Source: Escherichia coli | GTDB taxonomy: Bacteria > Pseudomonadota > Gammaproteobacteria > Enterobacterales > Enterobacteriaceae | Direction: 5' to 3' (one strand) | Length of the DNA stretch: 64,000 nucleotides | Assembly: GCF_017348835.2 (NCBI RefSeq) | Contig: NZ_CP071375.1 | Shown: piece by piece, positions 57,201 to 60,200 of the stretch | Layout: every line of letters begins with the position of its first letter | How positions within the stretch are numbered: the first letter of the stretch is position 1 | Program-made: the position numbers

Positions 57201-60200
57201 TTCCATTAACGTGGTCAATTTGACCAGCAGGCCAACGATTATGAGTTATGTAAAAAACTAAGACGTGAGTTTTATATCTACGCCCATCTATCATGATCAT
57301 TGAATAACCGTTGGAATCAAAAGTTCCAGCAACACTATTTAATGCTATCCTTCCCTGAGTGGGAACTTTCCATCTAAATACCCCGGTAGATTTATCGAAA
57401 CTTAGTAACTCAAATATCCTTTTAACAGTTAAATCTTCTCTTTTACGGTTACATCGTCTTCGCGCTGGTTTAGCCATCGCCTTCTTCCTCCGTAATGGTT
57501 TTCTGAATTTGGCCACCTGAACAGAGCTCACCAAAGCTATGGATGTCGGTATTTCCACAATACCAAGATGGCGAAAATAACTGCATGATAAGCCTCAGGG
57601 AAAAGGGAAGACACTACCCCCGATAATTCAGAAACAAATCGAAATACATGAACTAAAGAAAAAATCACAACAAATAGAAATAGAAACAGAAATAGAAATA
57701 GAAATAGAAATAGAAATAGAAATAGAAATAGAAATAGAAATATTAAAACAGACCACCACATTCCTGATGTCATACTCACTAAACAATTTTTCGACAACAT
57801 GGTAGCTCATAGCATGTTATCGTGTAGACACCCTCTGCTACGTATTCGGTGTTCAGTGCAATATCTACAAATACTGGAAAAATCTAAAATCGAGGCAAGT
57901 TTTTAGTGATAACTATAGTTAGACTATATTGACGACCTGATGTGCTGTATGTAATAATTAACAAAAAATATTTTCCATGGGATTTTTTTATTTTAATGAA
58001 ATGCAAAATATTTTTATCAATAGTTAGTATTATGGAAAACCATTAATTCAGGAGGAAACTTGATTCCAAATTCAACTTCAAATAAAGGTTATGTATGCAT
58101 TGACATGCAGTGTTCGTCAACCTCTGAACCAACAGCTTCTACCTCCAGCAACCGGAGTATTAAATTAGCCGCTTCCACAAATGTATATCCGATAACAAGA
58201 AACGACTCCGAGCTCACTCTGAACGATTTTCTTGATAATAGCTCTTCTACGTCATCATTGGACTACATTAATGAATTGGGCTCTCAACTGACGTTAAATG
58301 ATTTTCTTGACAACATAAAGACAAATGAGGTGGATGGAACATGTACGGATGTGGTAATTAATATCCCACAAGAGATACAAACAAATACACAGGAAAATGA
58401 TTTGTTATTATCCGATAAAAATAATTCAATATGCATTGAAATCGATGAAAGAATTACAAAAATCCTAACATGCAAGCAAAAATATCAACTGGACAGCATC
58501 ATTCATGAAATTATACCAAAAGAGAATGAGAGTGCAGAAACTGTTCTCCATCTTATGAGAGTTCTGAACGATCAATATCATCAGGTATATAATCAGTCAG
58601 GATGTTTTTATAAAGCCTATATGGCCATACACAATAAAATCGAACAGATACTTCCATATGCGTTCAGAGCCGGAGGCGGAATCAGCATTCACTTGCTCAT
58701 ACAGGCATTATTTTTTAATGGCGACTATAACAAATCACCTTCACAGTCTCAACAACCATCTTTATATACATCACCTTCTCCAACAATAAATACAGAAGCA
58801 TTCTTAAGTAATGTATTATCACTAGATATAACCCAGGTACGCATACTTGGTGATTTACTATCAGCAACTTTATTTCATGCACCAACAATATTCTATCAAT
58901 ATCCTAAACTAATAGATGAAGTTAAGTATTGTATAAGTAATAAAAAAATAACAGGTTCGGTTATAGCACGATTTACTCTATGTTTAACAAGTACATTACT
59001 AACCATGTCACCACTGTTAATGCTTAATGGAGCAGTTAAAACAGGTAGCATAGTAAGAACTATAGGTAGGGGAGTGAGTTATGCTGATATACCATTGGCC
59101 TTAGCTATATTAGGTGACTCATGGTATAAAGCTTATAAACATGGTTCTTCTGATAACCCAAATTCTGCTCAGAGATTTATATCGCAAGAAGCGGCCTTTA
59201 AAACCACCCAGCGGGTATTAACACAAGGATTAAGTCTGATGTCCTCTTTATCGGGAGCAATCATGCGCTCTCTTGAGAAAGGCACACCACCACAAATGAT
59301 GTCTTTATTCATCGTAAACATACTAAATCTATTATTTCATCAAAATCCATATGAAGGGGCATCAGCAAGTGCTAATGCTTTGAAAAGATCAACTTACTCC
59401 CATAATCCGGACATACTAAATACTCAGGCAATAGCTCTTTGTGTTGACCTCCAGCATACAAAAAATATAACCATGCCACTTTTCAAAACAAAAGACAGGA
59501 TATCTTACGCATTCAATGGACAAAGAACATCCCCAGAAGACCAAAAACAAATACTGAAAGAAGTTATAAACTCCTGTACCCAAGGAGAAAGAGCCATTTT
59601 AAATACATCACAATCAGAAACATGCAAACATAAAATCGATGAGATTTATGAAAAAAGATTCTCAGAAACAGAACTAAATACATTACCAAACGAAATGAAA
59701 AATTTCTTGATATTTTTGAACAAAACTCATGAAAAAGATATTTCGCGTTTAAGCATGGGTAACGAAGTTAATGAAAAAATAATTGCAGTTATAGTCAAGA
59801 CGTTAGCATATAGAGAGTCTATGTTGTGTTAGACTTTAACTCTATATTGATATAACATTAGCCAAATATTCAACAGTGTATGCGACCAAACACCAACATG
59901 TCGCATACATATACAATTTGAATATTTAATTATATTTACTTAATGTATTTCTATAAAAGCAAATTACAAACTCACAACAAAAAACCTCATAACACATTAA
60001 CAATCAATTCTTTTCATCTTTATAAATTCTCATATCAGGCTTGCACCCGATAAACCGACGAAAACTATTTAAAACCCATCGAGTGAAGTAATCTCTAAAA
60101 CCAAAGAAATACCAAGTGAAAATATTCACGATAAAATGCCCGGTCAAAGCCCCTCCTGTACCGCATGCAAGAACAGTAAAAAATCAGATGTTTTCATAAA

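Follow-up and report, generated by a model that had tools for sequence, protein, structure and literature searches.

A 3′ hairpin after a prophage gene of Escherichia coli, probably a protective end of its messenger

A perfect inverted repeat that stands shortly after the stop codon of a 590-aa open reading frame (ORF), in a prophage of Escherichia coli, is a real element and not a product of chance. We think it probable (at about 0.6) that it works at the RNA level, forming a stem-loop within the 3′ untranslated region (UTR) of the ORF's messenger, on the plus strand, where it would mark and protect the 3′ end. Comparison of its copies indicates that the hairpin has been maintained by evolution, under selection, and that it is apparently young, a clade-specific structure confined to Escherichia. 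In functional terms it is most likely an ordinary 3′-end element, which follows an uncharacterised prophage gene. The window, as we call the whole stretch of DNA that was analysed, comprises 64,000 nucleotides of E. coli DNA (contig NZ_CP071375.1) with a lambdoid prophage of the Stx1 type, and all coordinates refer to it.

The inverted repeat and the insert that carries it

The two arms of the repeat, TGTATGCGAC at 59877-59886 and GTCGCATACA at 59900-59909 on the plus strand, are perfect complements over 10 bp and enclose a 13-nt loop rich in C and A, CAAACACCAACAT (59887-59899); a G-U pair between 59876 and 59910 would be able to close the stem in plus-strand RNA. The initial annotation had seen a perfect 9-bp repeat and placed it at 59879-59909. 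The motif exists and is perfect, but its arms, GTATGCGAC and GTCGCATAC, occupy 59878-59886 and 59900-59908, one base further to the left, and one extra pair brings them to 10 bp. The distance from the stop codon, which had been put at about 45 bp, was measured at 44 nt (59833-59876, plus strand), a spacer whose length is kept, 44 against 46 nt, in a paralogue from E. albertii that shares 71% of its protein sequence with the ORF. That no T-run follows the repeat also holds, the next 12 nt being TATACAATTTGA. Around the hairpin there is an outer inverted repeat, perfect as well and again of 10 bp, in which AAATATTCAA (59864-59873) faces TTGAATATTT (59918-59927); on the plus strand it would form a nested helix over 59864-59927, set apart from the inner one by an asymmetric internal loop (3 nt against 8 nt).

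In first-order Markov simulations of the window, perfect inverted repeats with arms of at least 10 bp and loops of 3-20 nt are expected 1.07 times in 64 kb, which amounts to about 0.002 in 100 nt. The window holds some 21 distinct ones, from which it follows that they are mostly real elements; for such a repeat to lie less than 100 nt from any one stop codon, the expectation is likewise about 0.002. The initial annotation had proposed folding the 3′ UTR as a check, and in plus-strand RNA this yields a stable hairpin (-15.1 kcal/mol, z = -5.0, none of 200 shuffles being as good), which dominates both the MFE and the centroid folds of the 128-nt 3′ UTR. The hairpin of the minus strand, at -13.9 kcal/mol and z = -1.7, is unexceptional. 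The stem has 10-11 bp, with a GC content of 5/10 in the window and of 6/10 in the 71% paralogue, where the folding energy reaches -16.8 kcal/mol.

The ORF upstream of the hairpin (58060-59832, plus strand) starts with TTG, 5 nt after the Shine-Dalgarno sequence AGGAGG (58050-58055), and conservation of its N-terminus begins with the first codon. Its sole match in PHROGs is phrog_9230, annotated as 'unknown function'; sequence searches of Pfam, NCBIfam, PADLOC and the PDB gave no match, and a profile search of 1.84 billion representative proteins retrieved only 19 relatives, none of which has a Pfam domain. The AlphaFold2 model, built from a 14-sequence alignment, has a pLDDT of 37.6, and a literature search on the carrier phages found nothing about the gene. 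The family is restricted to enteric genera (Escherichia, Salmonella and Providencia). The protein begins with a Ser/Thr-rich N-terminus, continued by a variable number of LTLND-type repeats; the ORF adjoins an NleF gene in E. albertii, and an NleG gene is found in the same prophage as the ORF. Such features would be compatible with an unrecognised type III effector. Near-identical copies differ in the number of units, from 4 to 17, of an (AAATAG)n array that precedes the ORF, and in some copies a stop interrupts the ORF at codon 299.

The ORF has HNH/ninG on one side and ninE on the other, runs against the early-right operon on the opposite strand, and lies within a stretch of 34% GC, the window as a whole having 50%. 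Because lambda-type ninE/ninF homology covers only about 60211-60340, we assign the DNA from about 57560 to 60210, the hairpin included, to an AT-rich insert (about 34% GC, approximate boundaries) in the nin region, running from HNH/ninG to ninE. The region shares 99.6% identity with strain PE164, and over 561 bp it matches the Stx1-converting phages AU6Stx1 and SH2026Stx1 at 100%. Facing the ORF, on the minus strand, is a small convergent ORF of 47 aa (60004-60147), a doubtful gene whose stop codon is separated from the hairpin by 95 nt. Two copies have an additional A in the run at 60178-60183, and there it becomes a hydrophobic 64-aa ORF, so that its length hinges on an A6/A7 run.

Conservation and covariation of the stem

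Among 5426 E. coli genomes, 250 carry the segment, all of them at least 95% identical over it and 240 at least 99%. It occurs at 254 places, once or twice per genome and always beside the ORF; copies away from the ORF were found in none of the 5426. Relatives of the protein are present in E. albertii, at 92-93% and 71% identity, in one lineage at 58%, in Salmonella at 48-51% and in Providencia at about 50%. The E. albertii copies at 93% (L002) occupy the same nin slot and have an identical hairpin within a different 3′ region. The 71% paralogue (L003) is found in an unrelated context, where it adjoins a gene of the NleF family and converges with a trkG-like gene; its hairpin, CGTATGCGGC-N14-GCCGCATACG, comes 46 nt after the stop codon.

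BLAST nucleotide homology between the ORF and the 71% lineages stops near the stop codon (58036-59816), the spacer before the hairpin is about 55-60% identical, and after the hairpin similarity disappears; the loop of the paralogue, of 14 nt, is about 60% identical to the 13 nt of the window. When the stems are aligned, 8 pairs are invariant, 2 carry double changes (U-A has become C-G, and A-U has become G-C) and none is broken, so that pairing stays at 100%. The changes concern positions 59877 and 59885, each altered together with its partner. As a control, partners were slid by 1-3 columns, and pairing fell to 4-56%. From RNAalifold this helix, and no other, was obtained independently; the outer helix does not appear in the consensus with the 71% lineage. 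The covariation amounts to two events in a single independent divergent lineage. A part for the outer helix in the conserved structure was rejected, both by RNAalifold and by the substitutions in the 93% copies: the helix belongs to the E. coli lineage and is shifted to 9 bp in those copies.

At shorter range, 33 near-identical copies display 23 variable sites in the 178 nt that follow the stop codon: 3 upstream of the hairpin, 19 downstream, 1 in the loop (an A-to-T change in a single copy, L113) and none at the 20 stem positions, a distribution which is suggestive only, zero variable stem sites having a probability of about 0.064. In the more distant members of the family the picture changes. 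The 58% relative (L006) has a weak and different hairpin (-8.4 kcal/mol, z = -2.4); the Providencia relative, at 50%, ends with a canonical G-rich terminator stem and a T-run; nothing comparable was seen in Salmonella (48-51%) or in the two remote members that were checked. The homologous hairpin is thus missing from relatives at 58%, about 50% and below, and it is for this reason that we regard it as seemingly young and clade-specific.

Protective end, terminator or protein site

The U-tract of some 7-8 nt that directly follows the stem of an intrinsic terminator is absent here. A G+C-rich stem-loop does stand shortly 3′ of the gene; the first 8 nt after it contain 3 T on either strand of the window and, in the 71% paralogue, 1 T on the plus and 5 on the minus strand, against 5-7 in the canonical terminators of the same window (6-7 in those at 28169-28191, 48329-48364 and 53371-53410). 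The loop (13 nt, or 14 nt in the paralogue) exceeds the short loop of about 3-8 nt of such terminators, and a consensus terminator scan did not call the hairpin. It is therefore not a canonical intrinsic terminator on either strand, in line with the initial annotation, which had thought a classical one less likely.

Rho is the principal terminating factor in foreign, AT-rich DNA. For this reason, and because the features seen in the sequence match, we propose that the hairpin is a protective 3′ stem-loop with Rho termination beyond it. In their map of E. coli 3′ ends, Dar and Sorek saw the ends of Rho-dependent transcripts placed exactly behind stable stem-loops without a U-rich tail, and found that these transcripts show an enrichment of C over G and rut sites immediately downstream of the stem-loop, and that the ends are made by trimming by PNPase and RNase II (PMC6061677). 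The present hairpin is energetically stable and has no U-rich sequence after it, which agrees with the definition of that class (PMC6061677); rut-like sequence with C over G follows at once; and its pairs are held through compensatory substitutions, 2 of the 10 having changed on both sides in one divergent lineage. By each of its sequence-level features it would qualify as one of the U-less protective stem-loops of Rho-terminated transcripts. We infer that it acts in plus-strand RNA, that Rho is the terminating factor and that trimming sets the 3′ end. Transcription from the insert's own promoter would pass the stop codon and the hairpin and enter the untranslated, C-rich and G-poor spacer; Rho would load there and terminate diffusely, before or within the convergent ninE side; 3′-to-5′ exonucleases (PNPase, RNase II) would trim the tail to the base of the hairpin, near 59910-59915, and this base would be the stable 3′ end that protects the message.

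The candidate Rho-loading (rut-like) tract, at 59910-60003 on the plus strand, contains 15 C and 3 G, and windows of 78 nt reach a C/G ratio of 17, against 3.0 for the 99th percentile of the window. An excess of C is also seen downstream of the hairpin in the E. albertii 93% copies (13 C, 5 G) and in the 71% paralogue (23 C, 10 G), whose spacer is not homologous; it fails in the 58% relative (14 C to 16 G). The G-poor spacer being the least conserved stretch among close copies, its composition could be due to neutral drift of AT-rich DNA and not to selection for a rut site. Compensatory changes of Watson-Crick pairs are blind to the strand; the plus strand is preferred because the offset from the stop codon of the ORF is nearly constant, because the excess of C over G is polarised and because the convergent gene next to the 71% paralogue has a 3′ hairpin of its own, 35 nt after its stop codon. 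The initial annotation had hesitated between a protein-binding and an RNA-processing element. Its RNA half finds support, in the form of a hairpin that would define or protect a 3′ end, from the two stem pairs kept through double changes, the variable loop, the conserved offset and the C-rich tract downstream, and the RNA-level reading is favoured over protein binding.

Several other readings have to be weighed against the protective stem-loop. Intrinsic terminators are said to bound phage 'morons', and the position of this stable hairpin, 44 nt past the stop codon, is the one where the terminator of a self-contained moron would be expected. A weak, non-canonical plus-strand terminator, in which the hairpin, perhaps with the outer helix and with NusA or NusG, frees RNA polymerase without Rho, is for all that unlikely. 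The sequence past the outer helix is moderately T-rich (AATTATATTTAC), and inefficient intrinsic terminators with Rho as a backup may exist as intermediates (PMC6061677); yet this T-richness is the background of DNA at 34% GC, the T counts after the stem (3/8, and 1/8 in the 71% paralogue), the long loop and the silent consensus scan all speak against a terminator, and the outer helix is not conserved. Alternatively, the element might act on the minus strand, as a pause or terminator for transcription that arrives from the convergent neighbour, which in the phage is that of the PR early-right operon through ninE and in E. albertii that of the trkG-like gene, shielding the ORF from antisense transcription and being overridden by N-antiterminated polymerase in lytic growth. 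The lambda nin region does hold N-overridable terminators (tR2-tR4), the ORF converges with its neighbour in both contexts, the hairpin also forms in minus-strand RNA, and the minus-strand tail in the 71% paralogue, GTTTTGTA, has 5 T in 8. We nevertheless find this quite unlikely, since the minus-strand fold is unexceptional, the tail in the window has only 3 T in 8, the convergent gene of the paralogue already possesses its own hairpin and the constant offset is counted from the stop codon of the ORF, not of its neighbour. A promoter-like site at 59957-59929, from which minus-strand RNA would start at the hairpin, was given no weight: this AT-rich stretch has 8 promoter-like matches, against 12.5 expected from shuffles. 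Hardly credible is a retroregulation similar to that of lambda sib, with read-through RNA forming the longer nested helix (59864-59927), cut by RNase III, and transcripts ended at the inner hairpin remaining stable. The lambdoid setting and the two nested perfect 10-bp helices of the E. coli lineage would suit it, but the outer helix is missing from the 71% lineage consensus and altered in the 93% lineage, and the 3-nt/8-nt internal loop interrupts the helix. More generally, we lend very little credence to the hairpin and its E. coli-lineage outer helix being a regulated switch or a bidirectional insulator, instead of a passive 3′ end. The hairpin does stand between an effector-like gene on the opposite strand and the transcription path that leads from PR to Q to stx1 in Stx1 phages. 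Were a switch present, expression of the ORF might be coupled to the state of the prophage, one conceivable way being that RNase III cuts read-through RNA as in sib, and another that antisense transcription from PR is blocked until N antitermination overrides the block.

Outside RNA, the repeat could be a double-stranded DNA site for a dimeric protein, whether an operator or a recombination or nuclease site, and this protein-binding option of the initial annotation finds no support in the comparison. The dyad is perfect over 10 bp, and symmetric changes in the half-sites could come from co-evolution with a dimeric binder. Yet the half-site spacing passes from 13 to 14 bp between lineages while the spacer sequence has diverged, the site is found in the spacer between convergent genes, 44 nt past a stop codon, and not at a promoter, no regulator, recombinase or other DNA-binding gene accompanies the ORF across three contexts, the 9-mer has a single further occurrence in the window, no more than chance would give, and the segment is found only with the ORF. 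The fixed half-site spacing and regulated-promoter location proper to an operator were not observed, and we hold such a site to be very improbable. A fortuitous palindrome without function has even less in its favour. Chance alone should produce about one perfect inverted repeat of 10 bp in 64 kb, but for a position less than 100 nt from a stop codon the expectation drops to about 0.002, the folding score is z = -5, and the repeat was retained, with two double substitutions, in a lineage whose flanking non-coding DNA is only about 55-60% identical; because of this covariation chance is excluded in practice. A dispersed palindrome of the REP/BIME type was also considered, and rejected: the segment, at its 254 places in 250 genomes, is always beside the ORF, and there is no REP consensus. 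An Rfam 15 search of 57400-60700 at permissive E-values returned only sub-threshold shapes of miRNA precursors; the only hit, a plant miRNA-precursor model at 27.9 bits (gathering score 80), reflects hairpin shape and no more. A scan of viral contigs with the pattern GTATGCGNC-N8-22-GNCGCATAC retrieved 120 loci, of which all those with this loop carry the ORF, the rest being unrelated palindromes, and it revealed no wider hairpin family.

Significance and relation to known systems

If the protective stem-loop is the right reading, the hairpin likely sets the 3′ limit of a transcription unit, self-contained and horizontally mobile, that Stx1-converting and related prophages carry in their nin region. 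It would also offer a worked example of a 3′ hairpin, devoid of U-tract and supported by covariation, that is followed by a tract with more C than G in foreign, AT-rich DNA. There is a practical consequence for those who wish to build constructs of the 590-aa gene, which should include 59833-59930. The direct value of the hairpin is modest, and the gene is the more interesting object in the locus.

It is worth placing the element among its counterparts. With the canonical intrinsic terminators it shares a stem of 10 bp, of 50-60% GC, after an independently transcribed and horizontally acquired gene; it differs by the lack of their U-tract of 7-8 nt and by a loop that is too long. The lambda sib/tI region, downstream of int, likewise has a hairpin 3′ of a lambdoid-phage gene and a possible longer helix upon read-through, whereas here the outer helix is not conserved, and gene and location are different. 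As an extragenic palindrome able to stabilise the upstream mRNA it recalls REP and BIME elements; unlike them it is not dispersed, being found only with the ORF, in 250 of 5426 E. coli genomes, and does not have the REP consensus. The protective stem-loops of Rho-terminated transcripts are more typically of core genes and have shorter loops than the 13-14 nt seen here, a length beyond what is typical of terminator-like hairpins, and our element belongs to a phage-borne AT-rich insert; what it has in common with them is a stable hairpin close behind the stop codon, the lack of a U-rich tail and an excess of C over G immediately downstream.

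A small family with a possible secretion role

The 590-aa ORF (58060-59832, + strand) belongs to a very small family, for which a profile search of 1.84 billion proteins returned 19 representatives, hosted by EHEC/EPEC-type E. coli, E. albertii, Salmonella and Providencia. It had no match in Pfam, NCBIfam, PADLOC or PDB, and its AF2 model has a pLDDT of 37.6. The N-terminus of the protein is rich in Ser and Thr, and an S-x-LTLND-x-LD repeat is present in two to five copies across the family. The E. albertii paralogue adjoins an NleF gene, an NleG gene is annotated some 8 kb from the ORF in this E. 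coli prophage region, and the Salmonella member is placed between cdd and sanA. The protein is possibly a type III secretion effector that has gone unrecognised. In the viral contigs L042, L091 and L124 a stop at codon 299 divides the ORF in two, and this is why PHROG holds two half-length families, phrog_14900 and phrog_13344.

Variable tracts on either side of the ORF

The AT-rich insert contains a tandem array of the hexamer AAATAG (57672-57737, + strand), which lies roughly 320-390 bp 5' of the ORF start. The number of its units varies from 4 to 17 across copies that are otherwise at least 99% identical, with 17 in the Stx1-converting phage SH2026Stx1, 14 in the viral contig L042, 11 in the window, 9 in the near-identical locus L001 and 6 in L002, an E. 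albertii copy: the array is a VNTR. As one option, it could modulate the promoter region of the ORF; alternatively, it could encode a dipeptide repeat within an unsupported ORF of the - strand (57537-57800).

On the other side of the ORF, positions 59923-60052 form the most extreme G-depleted tract on the + strand of the entire 64 kb: windows of 78 nt reach C/G ratios of up to 17-18, the 99th percentile being 3.0. There is a small convergent putative ORF at 60004-60197 (- strand), with no match in PHROG, whose length is set by an A-run at 60178-60183: A7, as in L002 and L106, yields a 64-aa hydrophobic protein, while A6, as in the window and 31 other copies, reduces it to 47 aa. This may be either a gene or a slippage-prone tract.

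Inverted repeats and 3' hairpins

The whole window holds about 21 distinct inverted repeats with perfect arms of 10 bp or more (loop 3-20), where about one was expected. Several are canonical terminators, some of them bidirectional (examples lie at 2854-2882, 28169-28191, 41057-41090, 48329-48364 and 53371-53410). In the E. albertii paralogue locus L003, the convergent trkG-like gene is followed, 35 nt past its stop, by a strong hairpin (L003:5027-5068, - strand; -20.6 kcal/mol) with the tail AAGAATTG, which is not a U-tract. Beside the paralogue's own hairpin, this is a second case, in the same spacer, of a 3' hairpin lacking a U-tract.

A decayed prophage and its intact counterparts

The prophage at about 55600-61960, its gene content taken from the annotation of L001, is decayed. 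In that annotation, a truncated dam-like methyltransferase stands between ninE and xis/int, directly adjoining both, and a stop interrupts the Ser/Thr phosphatase. Of the lysozyme, lom and tail-fibre genes there are only fragments, and an IS3 insertion is present. By contrast, the phages SH2026Stx1 and AU6Stx1 are intact and carry the same insert, located upstream of Q and stx1.
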